Of a stretch of 64,000 bases of DNA, positions 7,698-58,154 are shown piece by piece. The translations under genes were made by a program, and so were the position numbers. The notes beneath the pieces are model-generated. The model was given only the letters and a program-made list of their open reading frames with translations, was not told the origin of the DNA and made no database searches. Position 1 is the first letter of the stretch. Each line of letters begins with the position of its first letter. The stretch comes from Granulosicoccus sp. (GTDB lineage: Bacteria > Pseudomonadota > Gammaproteobacteria > Granulosicoccales > Granulosicoccaceae), in assembly GCA_965224525.1 (NCBI GenBank), contig OZ245050.1:410021-474020 (forward strand). Reading direction: 5' to 3'.

Positions 7698-9392
7698 ATG
7701 GCAACCCTCATACCGCCCGTCAACATTGCCTCCATTGAGCCCTATAGTGAGCAACAGGTCATTGCTGCATTGATGGAGCAGCTACCGGCGGAATGTCGGC
7801 TGTATCACAACTTCGAGATTTTGACGCGTAGCGAAAAGACTGGCAAGAACAAGGGGACGGTCTTGCAGGAAGGGGAGATCGATGCTGTCGTGCTATGGCC
7901 AGGCAAGGGTTTGCTGGTACTGGAAGTGAAAGGCGGCGAAATTCGATACTGTGCTGAACAGTCCCGGTGGACAAGCAAAAACAGAAACGGTACTCACGAC
8001 ATCCAGGATCCGTTTCAGCAAGCTAAAAAAAACATGTACAGACTTATCAAGTCGATCGAGGGGGAGACCGGATCGAAGTTAAAAAATGCGTTGACACATG
8101 GTTTTGCAGTTATCTTCCCAAGCTCCCGAAGTGGGGGTCCGTTACCACACGGCGCTGATGCCGCAATCGTCTGTGATGCAAAGCGTCTGGAAAGCATCGG
8201 TCGTTTCGTTGATGGTGCGCTGAAACTCTGGCGCCGTGATTCAAACAAGCCGGCTCAGATGTCATTCGATTTCGAACAGGTACATCGTGCGATGTTGCCG
8301 GCTTTCAACCTGATGCCCTCGTTGAAGTCGCGCGTAGCCGGAGACAATGAACAGCTGTTGCGCTTGACTGAAGATCAGAGGAAGTATTTAAGCTTTGCCA
8401 GTAACATAAAAAGGGTGCGAATTAATGGCGTTGCAGGTTCTGGTAAAACACTGCTGGCGGTTGAGCAGGCGAGACGTTATAGCCGTGCCGGTCTGCGCAC
8501 CTTGTTGTTGTGTTACAACAAGTCACTGGCTGCCTGGATTCATGAGACGGTGGTTGTAGAGTCGGGTGATGCGCCGGTTGATGTGCATACCTTCCATGAC
8601 TTTTGCGCGCGTGCATGTAAAGAAGCTGTAATTACCTTCGACCCTTCAACTGGCGATGACTTCTGGACAGACCAGACGCCTGAGTTGTTGGCAGAGGCGA
8701 GTCACGCCATCCAGCCCTACGATGCTATTGTTGTTGACGAGGGGCAGGACTTTCGCGAAACCTGGTGGCTGGCGATTGAAGAGTGCCTGGTGAAAGACGG
8801 TCGATTGATGATTTTCTGCGATCCCCAGCAGGATATATTCGGTGCGGATGGGCTGGATGCAATTGATGTTGGTGATAGCATACTGGAGCTGCCTGAGAAC
8901 TGCCGGAATACTCAACACATTGCGCGTTTTTGCGATCATATCACTGCAGTCGAGACGTCTTCACCTGATAGTGCTCCGTCAGGCGTTCCGGTTAAATTAC
9001 AAGTAGAAGCATCGGATAACAAACGTCTGGCAAGAATCGAGGAGTTGCTGGATGGCTGGATCAAGCAGGAAGGTTTGTTGCCTTCACAAATTGCCATTTT
9101 GTCGCCATGGCGTCCGGAAAAAACCTGCCTGGCTGATGTTGAACAGGTCGGCCGTCATCAATTGACAAACAGCATTGAAGACTGGCGGAAAGGCAAGGGT
9201 GTTTTGCAAACAACAGTGCGATCATTCAAGGGTCTGGAAGCCGATGTGTTGCTACTGATTGATATCCCGAAACCCGATGCGCATAGAGCCTTCAGCACCG
9301 CAGATTATTATGTTGCCTGTTCACGGGCGAAGAGTGTTCTGCATGTGTTGGCCAAAGAGACGGCTGTCAAGAGTCTGGAAAAAGCTGCCTGA
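7698..9392 (+). CDS. NERD (nuclease-related domain) fused to a UvrD-like SF1 helicase/ATPase
   Basis: N-terminal EIDAVVLWPGKGLLVLEVKGG NERD signature. Walker A GVAGSGKT, Walker B VVDEGQD and a UvrD_C-like KGLEADVLLLID motif. Length 564 aa. Confidence 0.8.
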   Translation: MATLIPPVNIASIEPYSEQQVIAALMEQLPAECRLYHNFEILTRSEKTGKNKGTVLQEGEIDAVVLWPGKGLLVLEVKGGEIRYCAEQSRWTSKNRNGTHDIQDPFQQAKKNMYRLIKSIEGETGSKLKNALTHGFAVIFPSSRSGGPLPHGADAAIVCDAKRLESIGRFVDGALKLWRRDSNKPAQMSFDFEQVHRAMLPAFNLMPSLKSRVAGDNEQLLRLTEDQRKYLSFASNIKRVRINGVAGSGKTLLAVEQARRYSRAGLRTLLLCYNKSLAAWIHETVVVESGDAPVDVHTFHDFCARACKEAVITFDPSTGDDFWTDQTPELLAEASHAIQPYDAIVVDEGQDFRETWWLAIEECLVKDGRLMIFCDPQQDIFGADGLDAIDVGDSILELPENCRNTQHIARFCDHITAVETSSPDSAPSGVPVKLQVEASDNKRLARIEELLDGWIKQEGLLPSQIAILSPWRPEKTCLADVEQVGRHQLTNSIEDWRKGKGVLQTTVRSFKGLEADVLLLIDIPKPDAHRAFSTADYYVACSRAKSVLHVLAKETAVKSLEKAA

Positions 9393-51283: not shown

Positions 51284-52591
51284 TCAAGGGCAGATTGTGT
51301 TCTCACACACGCGCCGTAATCTCAGTGCATCTGTATCGGGTAGTTCAGCAACATGCTCATAGGTAATTGTCTGTCCTTTGGTGACAGGTGACTTCATGGC
51401 TACCCCATGCGCAAGTCCAATCGGCAGCGCCTTGTTTTGTACACTGGTGACTGCAGGCAGCAATTTCCCCCAGACCGTGTAGCCACCTTCGCCATCCAGC
51501 GTATCGCCCACGGACAGGTCGCGTTTGGCAATGGCTACCGCATCACCCTTGAAGCTGCGAGTACAGCCAGTTGGCTCATGCCTTAATGCTGCACTGAGTA
51601 CCGAGATAGACAGTTCCAGACCGATCAGATGGAACGGTTTGTATTGCGCGGCATACTGGCCCGTTGAGTCGGTTATCAGGCCGTACTGTTTAAAGCAGGC
51701 GGCGGCGTAGTCGTTTTGTGCTTCAAGTACGACATACACCCCCCAGCGCAAATCGCGGAAAACAGGTCGACCATCGCGCTCCAGGCTGGACACCACTTCG
51801 ACAATGCCGCTCTTTTCCAATACACCGCCAACAGATTCCGGCCTGAGCACATGTGCCAGGTCGTCCACACCGCAAGGGGGAAACAACAACCCGTCAGTCG
51901 GGACATCCAGATTGCAGGCATTGCTGATGGCGGCCATTTCGATAGCCGACTTGGTGCCGTCCAGAAAGGAATTGAACATTTGCGGATTCATCCCTGCAGC
52001 ATTGGCCTCGCTGGCTGACAGGCCATAGAAATCCCAGACATCGTCTGGTGTGACAGAGTGATAGGCAGGCAAGTATCGTGTGCCTTTACCGGCTGCCGCC
52101 ACGTCGAAACCAGTGGCGCGAGCCCAGTCGACCATCTCTGCAACCAGCGCCGGCTGGTCACCATAAGCCATGGAGTACACCACACCAGCTGACTGCGCGC
52201 GCATCGCCAGTTCTGCACCGGCAAGCACATCGGCTTCGACGTTGACCATGACAATGTGTTTGCCTTGTTTGATAGCCTCTAGTGCATGCGTACATCCAGC
52301 CAGCGGATTACCTGTTGCCTCGATAACTACTTCGATATCGTCCTGCTGACACAAAGCCACACCGTCATCGGTGAAATGGCAGGCATCGACAAGCGATTGA
52401 TCCCAACCGGTGTTGTTGCAGGCCTTACGCGCGCGGTCAGGTGATAGGTCGGCAATTGCGGTGACTTGCAAGCCTGTGATATTTGGTACTTGCGACAGAA
52501 ACATCGAGCCGAACTTGCCGCAGCCAATCAGTCCTACCTTGACGGGATTGCCTTTGTCATGGCGTGCTGCCAGAAGGGTCATCAGGTTCAT
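51284..52591 (-). CDS. NAD(P)-binding dehydrogenase (COG4091 predicted-homoserine-dehydrogenase-like) with a C-terminal SAF domain
   Basis: Rossmann motif VGLIGCGKFG. C-terminal SAF-like ...GDTLDGEGGYTVWGKLLP... Internal Met start chosen. Confidence 0.6.
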   Translation of the reverse strand: MNLMTLLAARHDKGNPVKVGLIGCGKFGSMFLSQVPNITGLQVTAIADLSPDRARKACNNTGWDQSLVDACHFTDDGVALCQQDDIEVVIEATGNPLAGCTHALEAIKQGKHIVMVNVEADVLAGAELAMRAQSAGVVYSMAYGDQPALVAEMVDWARATGFDVAAAGKGTRYLPAYHSVTPDDVWDFYGLSASEANAAGMNPQMFNSFLDGTKSAIEMAAISNACNLDVPTDGLLFPPCGVDDLAHVLRPESVGGVLEKSGIVEVVSSLERDGRPVFRDLRWGVYVVLEAQNDYAAACFKQYGLITDSTGQYAAQYKPFHLIGLELSISVLSAALRHEPTGCTRSFKGDAVAIAKRDLSVGDTLDGEGGYTVWGKLLPAVTSVQNKALPIGLAHGVAMKSPVTKGQTITYEHVAELPDTDALRLRRVCENTICP

Positions 52592-52653
52592 TGTGATCTG
52601 ACTCGTGATGGCTTTGCTTAAAGTGATCAGGCGTTGCCTGCTGAAATGGCGGG

Positions 52654-54189
52654 TCAGATCACCTGCCACTTTCGCAGTTGATCGGAACTGACATTGCTGC
52701 CACACAGAATAGCGGCAACCCGTCGGTCTGCAAAGCGGGAATTGTCTGCGAGTACCGCTGCAATGCCAGCCGCACCGGAAGGCTCCAGAACCAGTCCTGC
52801 GTGTGAGAACGCCAGTTGCATTGCGCTGATAATGTGCGAGTCTTCAACCAGTACCACATCGTCGATCAGTCCGTCGAGGTCCTTGACAACTTCCGGTACT
52901 GGGATACGGACTGCTATACCGTCGGCGATAGTTGTCGCGTTTTCAGTTGAGATCGCTTTTGCAGCCCGCCATGAGCGATACATGGCATCAGCACCACTTG
53001 CACAAACCCCGATGATTTCAGTTGTGGGTGTGCTGGCCTTCACCCAGCGGGCAATGCCTGTAAGCATGGCCCCGTTACCCAGAGGCACAAGAATCACATC
53101 GGGTGCACTGCCTGCGGCGAGCAGTTCAATGGCGATGGTGCCATGTCCTTCGCTGACTTCTGCCTCCCGTCCGTCTTCAACGAACAACAGCTGATTGTCA
53201 GCGGCGAAATGACGACCGGCATCCTTTGCTGCATCAAAATCATTACCCGCCAACTGCACATCAGCGCCCAGATCACGCATGCGTTGAACTTTGAGCTTGC
53301 TGGCGTTAATGGCGGCAAAGACAGTGACAGCAATATTTTCAGATCGACAAGTATAGGCGACAGCCTGACCCCAGTTACCAGCGCTGGCGCAAACAACCCG
53401 CTTGCCCAACGTATTTTGCGCCAGTCTTGAGCGCACCAGATAACTTGCACCGCGCCCCTTGAAACTGCGTAGCGGGTTGGCGGTTTCGAGTTTTATCAGC
53501 AGTTCACAACCCAGTGCATCGGCAAGAGCAGAATCGATATATTGCGGTGAATTGACAAAGCATTTGTCGACAACTTGTGCAGCGCTGCGAATACCGGCCA
53601 GGGTAATGCGATGTTCAGCGCTTGAGCGCTCACCAATCAGTTGGTCTCGTTCGTCGATAGGACGTTCACTATGTATATCGTTTGTGTGTGATGTCATCAA
53701 CACGCCATTGAGGTGATCAATTTCATGCTGAACGAGTTCGGATAGTTCTTCTGGCAAATTGAGCCAGTGCCGCTCGTGGCCTGATTCGTCCGTATACCGA
53801 ACATCGATATGACAGTTTCTGCTGACCTGGCAAATACGATCCGGTACGCTTAGGCAATCGTCCCACAGCGTAAAGGTAGAATCACTTTGTTTTGTGATTT
53901 CCGGGTTGATCAATGTGAAGGGCGTACCACCCAGTTGCAGTGCGATGATGCGATGCGATTCACCAATTTGTGGTGCGGCTATGGCGCGACCAAAACCGCT
54001 GGTTATTCTGAAATTGGCAAGCGTTGCGTGCAGGGTGGCAATGATATCGATGATTGAGTCGTCAATCCGGCCAACGGCTGTAGCAGTTGTCGTTAACACT
54101 GGATCGCCTTCAGTGCGAATGACTGCTGGCGTCGTATCGGGAAGGTTACGCAAGCGGCGTGCGGTTGTTATCAGTGGCGGTAGAATCAT
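52654..54189 (-). CDS. Fusion protein: N-terminal peptide-deformylase-fold domain plus C-terminal PLP-dependent threonine/serine-dehydratase-like (tryptophan-synthase-beta superfamily) domain
   Basis: PDF motifs GFGRAIAAPQIG, DDCLSVPD and QHEIDHLNG. The PLP-lysine motif SFKGRGASYLV and glycine-rich PLP loop follow downstream. Confidence 0.65.
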   Translation of the reverse strand: MILPPLITTARRLRNLPDTTPAVIRTEGDPVLTTTATAVGRIDDSIIDIIATLHATLANFRITSGFGRAIAAPQIGESHRIIALQLGGTPFTLINPEITKQSDSTFTLWDDCLSVPDRICQVSRNCHIDVRYTDESGHERHWLNLPEELSELVQHEIDHLNGVLMTSHTNDIHSERPIDERDQLIGERSSAEHRITLAGIRSAAQVVDKCFVNSPQYIDSALADALGCELLIKLETANPLRSFKGRGASYLVRSRLAQNTLGKRVVCASAGNWGQAVAYTCRSENIAVTVFAAINASKLKVQRMRDLGADVQLAGNDFDAAKDAGRHFAADNQLLFVEDGREAEVSEGHGTIAIELLAAGSAPDVILVPLGNGAMLTGIARWVKASTPTTEIIGVCASGADAMYRSWRAAKAISTENATTIADGIAVRIPVPEVVKDLDGLIDDVVLVEDSHIISAMQLAFSHAGLVLEPSGAAGIAAVLADNSRFADRRVAAILCGSNVSSDQLRKWQVI

Positions 54190-54328
54190 GGTTCGCTGGT
54201 GGTTACAGGCCTCAGGTGATTATCATTCTTTTTGAACAGCGAATTGCGGCTTTTTTGATTCGTTTGACGCCGCCATACGGCTTGAACCAACGATATTGGT
54301 TATCGATACAAACACAGTTAACCGGATT

Positions 54329-54826
54329 ATGCAGAACATGACAGTATCCCTTGACCAGCAAGATCACCGCATCCTTGCTTTGGTGCAGTTCGATATCCGC
54401 ATGAGTTCGGCAGCCATTGGTGACAAAGTGGGGCTGTCGGCAACTGCGGTGCAGCGCAGACTACAGCGTATGCGGGATGCCGGTGTAATAACAGCGGAAG
54501 TGGCGGTCATTGACCCTGCACTTGTCGGTTTGCCGGTGAGCGTCATTGTTGAGGTGGATATAGCGCGAGAAACCGGTGATGACCTGGATCGGTTTCAGAA
54601 TTTGATGGTGACGTGTGATGAGGTTCGCCAGTGCTGGTATACAACGGGCAAGGTTGATTTCGTCTTGCTTGTGGATGCGCCGGACATGACAGCCTATGAG
54701 GCATTTACCCGACGTGTTTTGATCAACAACGACAATGTGTTGAGCTTTACCAGTCTGGTCGTGCTGGATGAGATCAAGAATGGGCCAGTGGTCAGTATCA
54801 GATCTGCCAACTCCACGGCAGATTGA
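54329..54826 (+). CDS. Lrp/AsnC-family transcriptional regulator, divergent from the PDF-PLP operon
   Basis: HTH_AsnC N-terminus (LDQQDHRILALVQFDIRMSSAAIGDKVGLSATAVQRRLQRM) plus an RAM C-terminal domain. Confidence 0.8.
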   Translation: MQNMTVSLDQQDHRILALVQFDIRMSSAAIGDKVGLSATAVQRRLQRMRDAGVITAEVAVIDPALVGLPVSVIVEVDIARETGDDLDRFQNLMVTCDEVRQCWYTTGKVDFVLLVDAPDMTAYEAFTRRVLINNDNVLSFTSLVVLDEIKNGPVVSIRSANSTAD

Positions 54827-54853: not shown

Positions 54854-55324
54854 TTGCAATATGACTGGTCTGATAATAGAGCAACAGTGAGTATGTGGAG
54901 TCAGTCTCATCGCAAGTTATATAAAGGCCTGGATTCAAGTAGTGCATGGGCGGTCTGGACGGATATCAACCAGTGGCATACCTGGCAGCCGGATATCGAA
55001 TATGCAAAGCTCAATGGAGCGTTCGCTGTTGGCAGTACAGTCAGCATCAAGCCAAAAAGCGGGCCAGCGGTCAAGATAGAGCTGATCGAGGTTGAAGCGG
55101 GTCGCCTGTTCACTGACCTGACAAGATTCCCGTTGGCAAAGATGGTTGGCCGACACGAATTCATCGAGCGTGCCGATGGACTGGAAGTGGTTACCACGAT
55201 GAGCATCGAAGGCAGACTTGCCTTTTTGTGGAAAAAGCTTGTTGCCGAGAGCATTGTTCGCAACATGCCGGAGCAAACAGATAACATGGTTAAAAAAGCA
55301 AACAGTGTCCGGATTCAAGCATAA
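54854..55324 (+). CDS. SRPBCC (START/Bet v1-like, polyketide-cyclase-like) family protein
   Basis: Size and hydrophobic beta-grip pattern; weak assignment. Confidence 0.45.
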   Translation: MQYDWSDNRATVSMWSQSHRKLYKGLDSSSAWAVWTDINQWHTWQPDIEYAKLNGAFAVGSTVSIKPKSGPAVKIELIEVEAGRLFTDLTRFPLAKMVGRHEFIERADGLEVVTTMSIEGRLAFLWKKLVAESIVRNMPEQTDNMVKKANSVRIQA

Positions 55325-55754
55325 AACACCCGACGACAGCACAGGCTTTCTGTTGTGGAAGCTCAGCAGCCTGTGGCAGCAGATGCTGGCGGCGGAGCTG
55401 AGTCGCTTCGATATCAATCAAACCCAGTTTGCGATACTGGCCTCGCTCAAGTGGTTTTCCGGGAACGCGCAAACTGCGACACAAACCACATTGGTGGCGC
55501 ATGCGAAAATTGAGAAAATGACATTGTCGAAATCCATCAGGCTGTTGGAGCGACAAGGCCTGGTTGCAAGGTCAAAATCCCGTGAAGACGGGCGTACGGT
55601 TGCCGTGGTTTTGTCGCCCGAAGGTGCGAGGGTTATAGACAAGGCACTTGTTGCGGTAGAGAATGCCGATGAAATGTTTTTTGGTAAGCTGAAACCGGGG
55701 AAGCTGCGTGATTTCCAGGCGCTGATGCGGCATCTTGTCGAAAGCGCCGCTTGA
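55218..55754 (+). CDS. MarR-family transcriptional regulator (the true start probably lies downstream of 55218)
   Basis: wHTH ...NQTQFAILASLKWF...LSKSIRLLERQGLVARSKSREDGRTVAVVLSPEG... Confidence 0.65.
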   Translation: MPFCGKSLLPRALFATCRSKQITWLKKQTVSGFKHKTPDDSTGFLLWKLSSLWQQMLAAELSRFDINQTQFAILASLKWFSGNAQTATQTTLVAHAKIEKMTLSKSIRLLERQGLVARSKSREDGRTVAVVLSPEGARVIDKALVAVENADEMFFGKLKPGKLRDFQALMRHLVESAA

Positions 55755-55839: not shown

Positions 55840-56487
55840 ATGAAAAGCCCCGAGCGCAGGAATTTTACGGCCCCTACCAGATCACTGATGAAACGGATTG
55901 ATGTGGGTCTGTTTACCGCAGTCGTTGCCGTACTGCTGAGTTTTCTGACAGTCATGATGGAGAAGCAGACGCAAAAAGCCAGAGTCTTGCCGATCATACA
56001 AATGAACATGGGCTATGAATATGTGACGGCCCCCTACACATTCAAGATTACGTTATCCAACTCCGGCGCCGGCATTGCCTATGTGCAAAACGTACGGCCG
56101 CTGATTGGCGGTCAACCAGTTGCCGGGCATCAGGTTCTTCAGGATGCACTGATGAATGGACGCATGTTCGGAAATGCAAAATTTGAAGAACAGGCTGCTG
56201 CGGGATTTTTGAGTCCGGGCAATTCAGTTACTCCCTGGAGTTTTACCTGGACAGAGAATGGTCGCAGCGAAATTGAAGCCTATTTGCGCGGCGACTACGG
56301 CGCGCCGATGGAAGGTGTTGATCTGGAAGTGTGTTACTGCTCGGTATTTGATGATTGCTGGAAAGCGCTGGCTTCAAGCACTGGCAAACCCAAGCCGGTC
56401 AACAGCTGCGGGCGCGGTGACAAGCAGGATGATTTCTTCAAGCAATCGATTGCGGATCGTGCAGCGGAAATGCTTGCGACGGAGTGA
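55840..56487 (+). CDS. Hypothetical membrane-anchored protein
   Basis: ORF with one N-terminal TM helix. No motif recognised. Confidence 0.4.
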   Translation: MKSPERRNFTAPTRSLMKRIDVGLFTAVVAVLLSFLTVMMEKQTQKARVLPIIQMNMGYEYVTAPYTFKITLSNSGAGIAYVQNVRPLIGGQPVAGHQVLQDALMNGRMFGNAKFEEQAAAGFLSPGNSVTPWSFTWTENGRSEIEAYLRGDYGAPMEGVDLEVCYCSVFDDCWKALASSTGKPKPVNSCGRGDKQDDFFKQSIADRAAEMLATE

Positions 56488-56500
56488 TTGTGAGGGTTTG

Positions 56501-57415
56501 TCAGTTCTTGCACCGTATAAGTGAGATGAGCTGCTCTAATTCGGGTTTGTTGCGATCTACCTTTCGAGTAGCAACCCATAGATCATTGACCATGGGTGCT
56601 TTTGCCTCCCACAAAATGTGCAGCTTTTCTGCACGCAATGATTGCTGGCAGATGTAACGAGGCAGAACACTGATTCCTCGCCCAAGTTCAACCGCCTTGC
56701 GGATTAACAGCAGACTGGAAACGATCATCACCGGATCAATATCTGGCCGTTGCTGGAAGGCGGTATGCCAAAACCTGCGAATGATGGGTAACTCTACTGA
56801 ATAGCTGATCCATCGTTGTTCGAGTAAAAAGCGTTTGATATCATTTTGCTTGCCGGTCTTTTTAAAAAGCTTTGCAGGCAGGATTATTTCCGGTGCTGCA
56901 ACCAGGATAAAATCTTCCTGATCGATTTTTGTATAGTCAATATTTTCCCCGCGTATCTGCTGCGTGGCAATGACGGCATCAAGCCTTCCGCGGGATAGCC
57001 CGTCGATCATTTTATCGGCATCACCCAGTTCTACCTGCAAGCGGAACTGAGAGTGTTTCAGTTTTTCAATGCCGACCTCGTGGAAATAGTCCAGCGGTGT
57101 TCCCAGTCGGATAACAGCCACCTCATCGGTGGAGGTATCGCTCAGGGTTGCTGACACCCTCTCAAGACCGTCCATTGCCGGTGCCATGCGGCTATACAGT
57201 GCTTTTCCGTGTTCCGTTGGAACCATTCTTCTTGGTGTGCGTTGAAATAGCGCATGTCCGACGGCGGACTCAAGCGCTGCAATATGCTGACTGATCGCAG
57301 GTTGGGTGAGAAACCGTACTTTTGCGGCCGCTGTGACTGTTCCGGACAGATACACCGCAATGAAGCTTCGGTACCATTCAAAATCGACCATAATAAAATT
57401 TATACCTATTGACAA
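56501..57415 (-). CDS. LysR-family transcriptional regulator
   Basis: N-terminal HTH ...FIAVYLSGTVTAAAKVRFLTQPAISQHIAALE... and a C-terminal substrate-binding domain. Length 304 aa. Confidence 0.85.
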   Translation of the reverse strand: MSIGINFIMVDFEWYRSFIAVYLSGTVTAAAKVRFLTQPAISQHIAALESAVGHALFQRTPRRMVPTEHGKALYSRMAPAMDGLERVSATLSDTSTDEVAVIRLGTPLDYFHEVGIEKLKHSQFRLQVELGDADKMIDGLSRGRLDAVIATQQIRGENIDYTKIDQEDFILVAAPEIILPAKLFKKTGKQNDIKRFLLEQRWISYSVELPIIRRFWHTAFQQRPDIDPVMIVSSLLLIRKAVELGRGISVLPRYICQQSLRAEKLHILWEAKAPMVNDLWVATRKVDRNKPELEQLISLIRCKN

Positions 57416-57479
57416 TATATATAATTATTATTCTAGTCTGTAACGCCATAGGGTGTCACTTCACACAAAGGAGCACCCT

Positions 57480-58154
57480 ATGCAAACAAGCAGATCAATC
57501 CTTATTGTTGTAACGAGTTTTGGCGAAATTGCGCCTGGAGAGCTGACTGGCCTTTGGCTGGAGGAGTTTGCGGTGCCCTATATTGAATTCAGGCGCGAGG
57601 GCTTTCAGGTCTGCGTGGCCAGTGTGCAAGGTGGCAAAGCGCCTGTAGATCCGCGTAGTAACCCTGCACCCGAAAAAACAAAAGCATGGGCAGAAGCCAT
57701 CAAGTCTTTGCAAAAGACAGTACCTGTTGCCTCAATTGAGCCTGCCGATTTTGCTGCTGTTTTTATACCGGGAGGTCATGGGACGATGTTTGATTTTCCG
57801 GATAGCGTCGACTTGAACAGGGTGCTGAAAGGCTTTGTAGAGCAGGGGAAAGTTATAGCCGCCATGTGCCACGGGCCAGCGAGTCTGGTTGGCGTTATGT
57901 TTGAAGACGGCACTTCGCTGGTGGCTGGCAGAACTGTCACCGGTTTTACAAACGAAGAGGAGTCTGCTGCTGGCCTGGCAGACAAGATGCCATTTCTGCT
58001 TGAGAGCCGGCTTCGTGAGTTGGGAGCGAATTTTGTCGGAAAACCGAACTGGTCTGATCATGTGCAAGTCGATGGCAATCTGATTACGGGACAAAACCCG
58101 CAATCAAGCAAAAGTACCGCTCTGGCGGTTATTGATGCCCTGAACAACAACTGA
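57480..58154 (+). CDS. DJ-1/PfpI (type 1 glutamine amidotransferase-like) family protein
   Basis: Nucleophile-elbow region ...VIAAMCHGPASLV... is typical of DJ-1/PfpI. Confidence 0.75.
   Translation: MQTSRSILIVVTSFGEIAPGELTGLWLEEFAVPYIEFRREGFQVCVASVQGGKAPVDPRSNPAPEKTKAWAEAIKSLQKTVPVASIEPADFAAVFIPGGHGTMFDFPDSVDLNRVLKGFVEQGKVIAAMCHGPASLVGVMFEDGTSLVAGRTVTGFTNEEESAAGLADKMPFLLESRLRELGANFVGKPNWSDHVQVDGNLITGQNPQSSKSTALAVIDALNNN

Follow-up and report, generated by a model that had tools for sequence, protein, structure and literature searches.

We analysed a 64,000-nt stretch of Granulosicoccus sp. DNA (contig OZ245050.1, positions 410,021 to 474,020; hereafter the window) and found that a single gene on its minus strand (52654-54189) joins a variant peptide deformylase (PDF) domain to a dehydratase-like pyridoxal 5'-phosphate (PLP) domain in one protein of 511 residues. 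Granulosicoccus is a marine gammaproteobacterial genus (Chromatiales, Granulosicoccaceae). Judged from its residues, the PDF half belongs to a distinct, non-canonical subfamily with what appears to be a rebuilt, charged substrate pocket, and this subfamily (the WDDC-type PDFs) is a more interesting outcome of the analysis than is the fusion. As to function, we give an even chance to the fused protein being a bifunctional catabolic enzyme, in which the PDF-fold domain would deblock a small-molecule amino acid that carries a formyl or very small acyl group and the PLP domain would deaminate the product, under amino-acid-responsive control of the Lrp type.

The fusion protein is genuine

The open reading frame (ORF) at 52654-54189 has no internal stops. 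Pfam assigned residues 24-172 to Pep_deformylase (PF01327, 111.9 bits against a cutoff of 22.8) and residues 221-497 to PALP (PF00291, 238.8 bits against 35), and both scores are far above chance level. The protein is 100% identical to an NCBI protein of a Granulosicoccus sp. metagenome-assembled genome (MAG). All 120 of the best database homologues (50-100% identity, about 485-530 residues) have the same PF01327 plus PF00291 architecture. Fused homologues were found in the isolate genomes of Deinococcus cavernae and Cupriavidus sp. PET2-C1, both cultured organisms that carry the family, and in MAGs of Holophagales, Actinomycetota, Tahibacter and Gammaproteobacteria. An AlphaFold2 model of the whole protein had a mean predicted local distance difference test (pLDDT) score of 92 and a predicted template modelling (pTM) score of 0.90.

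The fusion had been proposed in an initial annotation made from the DNA letters, with the reservation that the motif matches could be chance or that two genes could have been run together. The profile searches show that the N-terminal domain is PDF-like and has its metal ligands, and alignment shows both active-site residue sets to be intact and conserved. A frameshift, missed stop codon or misassembly joining two genes was rejected, as the ORF is unbroken and the same architecture occurs in independent assemblies, isolate genomes included. Moreover, R194, L197 and other residues of the junction are conserved in an alignment of 36 diverse members of the family, which was used throughout for residue conservation. 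Nothing in favour of an artefact turned up and we consider its probability negligible. The protein is composed of two complete proteins joined with essentially no additional linker, because the PLP half also exists as standalone proteins of 316-330 residues.

The initial annotation knew of no described PDF-PLP fusion and our literature searches on this architecture likewise found no relevant paper. The sequences of fused proteins are public and both halves come from known superfamilies, but the names given in databases are generic ("pyridoxal-phosphate dependent enzyme", "peptide deformylase" or "threonine dehydratase/peptide deformylase").

Note that the first 20 residues of the protein (54129-54189) form an N-terminal extension of about 20 residues seen in the Granulosicoccus-lineage proteins P0001-P0004 and absent from most homologues. 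The extension is conserved at the protein level between 68%-identical relatives, and its residues 1-8 were modelled by AlphaFold2 with a pLDDT below 50.

The PDF half has the catalytic residues of deformylases and a different substrate pocket

Within the PDF domain (residues 24-172; 53674-54120, minus strand), Q74 (codon 53968-53970), C112 (53854-53856), H155 (53725-53727), E156 (53722-53724) and H159 (53713-53715) are invariant in the 36 aligned members. The corresponding residues in E. coli Def numbering (Q50, C90, H132, E133 and H136) are retained in 97 of the 97 variant PDFs compared, a set of 40 fused and 57 standalone sequences. Other key codons are those of R68 (53986-53988), W109-D110-D111 (53857-53865) and E151 (53737-53739). 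Two of the three metal-site motifs that the initial annotation read in this half are present as stated, CLS (at C112) and HExxH (as HEIDH, H155/E156/H159). The third, GxGxAAxQ, does not fit literally: the protein has GFGRAIAAPQ, with two extra residues, which can also be read as G-R-A-I-A-A-P-Q.

About 60 ordinary PDFs were available for comparison as a by-product of a contig scan made with the full-length alignment, from which they were taken by the pattern QHExDHLxG; ordinary PDFs dominated the matches listed from that scan, which contained no true fusions. The two groups split cleanly. Canonical proteins have G[IV]GLAAPQ, EEGCLS and ..CIQHExDH, whereas the fused and standalone variants have GR[AG]IAAPQ, WDDC[LMF]S and SELLQHExDHL[DN]G, the second motif of the fusion protein being WDDCLS instead of EGCLS. 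When the pocket positions were mapped onto E. coli Def by sequence alignment, E87 was replaced by W, E88 by D, I128 by E and C129 by L in all 97 variants, G89 by D in 96 (39 of the 40 fused sequences) and L125 mostly by D or E, with an Arg-Ala pair inserted after G45. In true deformylases the replaced positions build the substrate cleft and the hydrophobic S1' pocket that takes up the methionine side chain. The fusion protein therefore has neither the canonical G-phi-G-phi-A-A-x-Q motif nor E-G-C-L-S, and the hydrophobic S1' pocket (I44, L125, I128 and C129 in E. coli) is missing from the variants.

The NCBIfam PDF models gave the same picture, with the fusion protein scoring below both cutoffs (NF001159, 93.8 against 125; TIGR00079, 89.7 against 103.95); one standalone variant narrowly exceeded TIGR00079 (106.3 against 103.95). 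Compared with peptide deformylases such as E. coli Def and the Thermotoga maritima PDF (1LME), the fusion protein differs in the Arg-Ala insertion of motif 1, in WDDC at the place of EGC, in the altered pocket residues, in its sub-cutoff NCBIfam scores and in the enzyme fused at the C-terminus. Of the assignment of this half as a PDF, the fold and the metal ligands stand; it is not a canonical deformylase.

A 2025 survey found EGCLS to be more than 95% conserved in PDFs that are the sole copy of their genome and extra PDFs to be present in 48% of bacterial species (PMC12690207). A Mucilaginibacter locus (L017) contains both kinds, a canonical def (365-946) and a variant copy (7959-8444). No PDF other than that of the fusion was found in the 64-kb window.

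The variant PDF is a widespread module

A query with the PDF half returned almost only single-domain proteins of 165-200 residues and 45-58% identity (Vicinamibacteria, Thermoanaerobaculia, Acidimicrobiia and others). In a library of 50%-identity representatives, the same query matched 1540 clusters at E<=1e-10 and 32 at E<=1e-30, and the best 150 clusters included five full PDF-PALP fusions and two truncated ones. Standalone WDDC-type PDFs (loci L005-L029 and L077, proteins P0121-P0240; for example, L006 7974-8501, L013 8001-8543 and L017 7959-8444) occur in Bacteroidota, Acidobacteriota, Firmicutes, Gemmatimonadota and Paraburkholderia, where they are annotated simply as peptide deformylase.

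Others among these 150 join the module to a GNAT acetyltransferase (two clusters), to a glyoxalase domain, to HutD or to NUDIX. A check of the sequences confirmed the signature of the variant in the GNAT, glyoxalase and HutD fusions (P0365, P0441, P0394 and P0464), and the NUDIX fusion (P0473) gave no match in the variant motif check. HutD has been implicated in limiting the accumulation of formylglutamate (PMC8034625), and its fusion to the module is a faint hint toward N-formyl-amino-acid chemistry.

The PLP half resembles ammonia-lyases rather than racemases

Residues 190-511 (52657-53622, minus strand) form a fold-type II PLP domain of the threonine/serine dehydratase kind, whose best alignments are to threonine deaminases and serine racemases. 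The SFKxRGA lysine motif reported in the initial annotation is present as SFKGRGA. Its K244 (53458-53460), the Schiff-base lysine in an S-F-K-x-R-G context, is kept in 90% or more of the 36 members, and S269-A270-G271-N272 and G371-N372-G373 are invariant (codons of A270, 53380-53382; N272, 53374-53376). Ala270 is located at the position of Ser84 of human serine racemase, as it is in threonine deaminases, and Cys496 (52702-52704) aligns with the residue that faces the pyridine nitrogen. From these two positions we read the PLP half as of the ammonia-lyase type and not a racemase. Racemase chemistry was rejected because the invariant Ala270 replaces the second catalytic base, the Ser of the S-S-G-N loop.

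The resemblance to known dehydratases is distant. Identity to TdcB and to the catalytic domain of IlvA is only 25-29%, and those proteins lack the N-terminal PDF-like domain. The S-A-G-N substrate loop is kept, but the His that follows the Asn is replaced by Trp or Phe, the phosphate loop is G371-N372-G373-A374 rather than G-G-G-G and Cys replaces Ser at the pyridine nitrogen. The PLP half also scored far below the cutoffs of all 17 NCBIfam dehydratase models (the best was NF005600, 208.5 against 496), and its standalone relatives were below cutoff as well.

A metagenome scan with the PLP half returned mostly standalone proteins of 316-330 residues (46-58% identity), which start "..HRLSLERIEQAA..". 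In a neighbour-joining tree of PLP halves, 47 of the 47 fused sequences grouped with seven standalone ones, and in a tree of the PDF halves the fused and standalone sequences were interleaved. The grouping in the PLP-half tree is no more than suggestive of a single origin of the fusion.

One clade of standalone PLP proteins (L122, L123, L126, L136, L139, L144 and others) is encoded within an ask-X-asd operon, between the genes of aspartate kinase and aspartate-semialdehyde dehydrogenase, in which asd begins 11-17 nt downstream of the PLP gene. This placement suggests a role in the threonine pathway for those members.

A divergent Lrp/AsnC gene recurs beside the family

The gene divergent from the fusion gene (54296-54826, plus strand) encodes a Lrp/AsnC-family regulator, as had been stated in the initial annotation. 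Pfam found the N-terminal AsnC-type helix-turn-helix (PF13404, 47.3 bits) and the C-terminal RAM domain AsnC_trans_reg (PF01037, 56.7 bits). By its NCBIfam score the protein is a member of the family and not Lrp itself, because it falls below the Lrp equivalog cutoff (86 bits against 233). The 106-bp intergenic region (54190-54295) is presumed to be a regulatory region shared by the two genes, given the recurrence of the divergent arrangement; a consensus scan gave no consensus sigma-70 match within it. Lrp/AsnC genes adjoin the family gene in the window and in loci L165, L166, L172, L168 and L089, that is, in four of six sequence lineages of fused proteins, and also adjoin standalone PLP genes in L101, L117, L163 and L094. 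The Lrp homologues beside fused or standalone members in other loci are 32-52% identical to that of the window.

Other neighbours of the family

In locus L107 a standalone PLP gene (43-1017) is followed on the same strand, after about 10 nt, by a variant PDF gene (about 1029-1580), an arrangement that amounts to the fusion split into two genes, with their order reversed. In Paraburkholderia susongensis (L013, 6247-9477) a variant PDF is flanked on one side by a Leu/Ile/Val-type binding protein and on the other by a class-IV (PLP) aminotransferase-like ORF, with a divergent Lrp homologue of 39% identity. Amidohydrolases of the Peptidase_M20 family adjoin both fused and standalone members (L169 7470-8708, with a 4-bp overlap; L168 3283-4590 and 9395-10549; L111 1367-2545), as would suit a pathway that degrades N-blocked amino acids or small peptides.

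In one lineage a PLP-family gene is directly downstream of cobT, in L002/L003 (6704-9497), L167 (4695-7488) and L125 (2526-4690), within a cobT...cobS-cobC neighbourhood; the PDF domain is present in L002 and L167 and absent in L125. The cobamide linker is derived from threonine, and a connection of these genes to cobamide metabolism is conceivable. An apparent 765-residue CobT-PLP fusion in L125 was discarded as no more than an overlapping open frame; the PLP gene and cobT are separate.

In two related loci the fusion gene is translationally coupled to a DJ-1/PfpI gene (L166 7479-8108 and L172 7479-8102), with 4 bp of overlap at the 3' end of the former. The top match of the DJ-1/PfpI protein is an uncharacterised ThiJ-family protein, and among characterised proteins of solved structure the closest is the isonitrile hydratase InhA (E~4e-21), whose catalytic Cys101 and Asp17 are aligned. 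In L147 (2417-3556) a 34%-identical DJ-1 homologue lies upstream of a standalone PLP gene, with 31 nt between its end and that gene; this DJ-1 protein has no helix-turn-helix and was thus rejected as a regulator of the GlxA/AraC type.

Possible functions of the fused enzyme

If the protein is a bifunctional catabolic enzyme, the N-terminal domain would be a metal-dependent amidohydrolase of PDF fold with a charged pocket and an invariant Arg inserted in motif 1. Acting on a free amino acid or another small molecule and not on nascent proteins at the ribosome, it would strip the alpha-amine of a formyl or very small acyl group. With the amine set free, the PLP domain would form an external aldimine with it and then carry out beta-elimination and deamination to give a 2-oxo acid plus ammonium, and the divergent Lrp/AsnC protein would activate the gene in response to an amino-acid-like effector. 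The chemistry proposed for each half is drawn from its conserved residues, sequential coupling is suggested by the fusion together with the rare split-gene adjacency, and we infer the small-molecule N-formyl substrate and the Lrp regulation. Deformylation coupled to beta-elimination, as put forward in the initial annotation, is plausible.

Several observations weigh against this reading. Among the PLP-half loci about 68 of 80 are standalone and without PDF, five are fused and the remainder are truncated, and most of the standalone PLP genes have no PDF nearby. Likewise, no partner predominated in a Pfam census of the genes on either side of 22 standalone variant PDFs (Aminotran_4 in two of the 22). 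Because most relatives are standalone and unlinked, each half clearly functions alone and coupling is not obligatory. The contexts of fused genes are heterogeneous (cobT, DJ-1/PfpI, M20, DUF3830 or none of these), and the fused group of the PLP-half tree was kept compact in only about 10 of 30 resamples, which is weak support. An acidic S1' pocket is not an obvious fit for a Ser or Thr side chain.

The independence of the PLP half would be expected if the PDF-like domain were a non-catalytic regulatory, ligand-sensing or oligomerisation module of a threonine/serine dehydratase, in the way that C-terminal ACT-like domains serve IlvA. The PLP family functions without a PDF in most loci, downstream of cobT the PLP gene may or may not have one, Pfam found no ACT-like domain in the fusion protein, and the pTM of the model suggests tight packing of the two domains. 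However, enzyme-derived sensor domains usually lose their catalytic residues, whereas the metal ligands, Glu156 and Gln74 are invariant in the 36 fused members and in the 57 standalone variants. A module that occurs alone or fused to unrelated enzymes also fits an autonomous catalyst, and we consider the regulatory reading fairly unlikely. The intact catalytic residue set is also expected of an ordinary accessory PDF that acts on nascent formylmethionine proteins (for example, one tolerant of natural PDF inhibitors) and was fused to a threonine dehydratase without metabolic linkage. The standalone variant that passes TIGR00079 agrees with this, as do the frequency of extra PDFs and the existence of a functional def-fmt fusion (PMC12690207). 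It is difficult to reconcile with the replacement of all the methionine-pocket positions examined, several by charged residues, with WDDC in place of EGC and with the sub-cutoff NCBIfam scores of the fusion protein. Moreover, the enzymes to which the module is fused act on small molecules, and its C-terminus continues directly into the PLP domain, which would likely alter any ribosome-docking role of the C-terminal helix. In E. coli Def that helix docks on the ribosome. An ordinary deformylase thus seems distinctly unlikely.

The DJ-1/PfpI genes raise the possibility of an isonitrile or formamide detoxification route, in which an isocyanide-hydratase-like protein would form an N-formyl amino acid for deformylation by the PDF domain and deamination by the PLP domain. 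Isocyanide hydratases have N-formamides as their products, the overlapping genes of L166 and L172 encode proteins with InhA as closest characterised structure and with both catalytic residues aligned, and the L147 homologue precedes a standalone PLP gene. However, only two lineages have the overlapping gene, the DJ-1 gene of the window is unrelated, identity to InhA is modest, the PLP gene of L147 has no PDF and DJ-1/PfpI proteins have many other activities. We regard this route as highly unlikely. Broader, and put forward only tentatively, is the possibility that WDDC-type PDFs are an unrecognised class of enzymes that hydrolyse small-molecule N-formyl or formamide compounds. In the fusion such an enzyme would feed an ammonia-lyase to give 2-oxo acid, formate and ammonia, with the substrate perhaps derived from an isonitrile in some lineages.

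We know of no PDF-fold enzyme for small-molecule N-formyl hydrolysis. Isonitrile hydratase InhA and the N-substituted formamide deformylase NfdA constitute a two-step formamide route. HutG is an N-formylglutamate amidohydrolase (PMC8034625). These systems are functional analogies only, in that small-molecule N-formyl hydrolysis frees an amine for catabolism: in L166 and L172 the fusion gene is coupled to an InhA-like gene, and the folds of NfdA and HutG are unrelated to that of PDF. The only PDF fusion protein that we found described in the literature is the Exiguobacterium Def-Fmt fusion, which is functional (Lamberioux et al. 2025, PMC12690207). That protein joins a canonical PDF to the formyltransferase that works in the same cycle of N-terminal formylation, whereas here a variant PDF is joined to what would be an amino-acid-degrading PLP enzyme.

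The breadth of the variant subfamily and its repeated fusion to small-molecule enzymes suggest a second, metabolic role for the PDF fold, which annotation as "peptide deformylase" or "PLP-dependent enzyme" would hide. Peptide deformylase is regarded as an antibiotic target and as an enzyme of one function that associates with the ribosome. If the small-molecule N-formyl reading is true, the family would represent a new route of catabolism or detoxification, and the fold of an antibiotic target would have a new function. The fusion serves as a Rosetta-stone link that gives a testable hypothesis, N-formyl amino acid in and 2-oxo acid out. The subfamily also bears on genome surveys in which "accessory PDFs" are tallied as possible determinants of resistance.

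The downstream oxidoreductase and other genes of the window

The initial annotation had made a downstream dehydrogenase with a SAF domain a pathway partner of the fusion protein. The gene (51284-52591, minus strand, as is the fusion gene) encodes a DRL/DLO-type NAD(P)-dependent oxidoreductase of 435 residues. It has DRL_cat (PF21135, 196.5 bits) and Rossmann (PF01408 and PF03447) matches, but the SAF match is weak (18.5 bits against a cutoff of 21). The start is most likely the ATG at 52591, which gives a protein of 435 residues identical to the database copy, rather than the GTG at 52705. It follows that the two genes are separated by a 62-nt gap instead of overlapping. No terminator-like site was found in the gap, and co-transcription in this genome is plausible.

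The partnership itself was rejected. In L165, where the fusion protein is 87% identical, the synteny of the divergent AsnC and fusion genes with bacA and TM_HPP is kept without the oxidoreductase, and the distance from fusion gene to bacA is only about 136 bp (2287-2423). No DRL homologue was found in the 82 related loci screened; the Lrp gene, by contrast, recurs. DRL homologues of 70-76% identity, an unusually high conservation between Gamma- and Alphaproteobacteria, occur in Hyphomicrobiales and others in unrelated contexts. In Mesorhizobium (L171) the order is leuD-RidA-DRL-leuB, with DRL overlapping the RidA-family gene, and in another Granulosicoccus DRL follows a malonyl-CoA decarboxylase and an AMP-ligase. 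The 1.4-kb DRL gene between the fusion gene and bacA looks like an insertion, or a loss in the relative, and we class it as a lineage-specific insertion. The adjacency had been over-read, as the dehydrogenase is not part of any conserved pathway with the fusion protein.

The wider DRL family includes DXR-II and uncharacterised DLO clades (PMC3847144). The same paper gives the criteria that set DXR-II apart from DLO1 and DLO2, namely clade membership and specific residues such as Thr229 and Arg320 of the Brucella enzyme. The oxidoreductase shares with DXR-II/DLO the DRL_cat and Rossmann domains and the weak SAF match, but its genomic contexts (leuD-RidA-DRL-leuB and malonyl-CoA decarboxylase-ligase-DRL) do not indicate the methylerythritol phosphate (MEP) pathway.

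The window also contains a DJ-1/PfpI gene (57453-58154), located 3.3 kb from the fusion gene and divergent from a LysR regulator (56501-57415). Its product is of the Hsp31/glyoxalase-III type, and the gene was rejected as a counterpart of the DJ-1/PfpI genes of L166 and L172, to which it is unrelated. An ORF of 215 residues at 55840-56487 had no Pfam matches. As listed, the SRPBCC ORF (54854-55324) shares about 107 nt with the MarR ORF (55218-55754), and because of this overlap the true start of MarR is probably further downstream.

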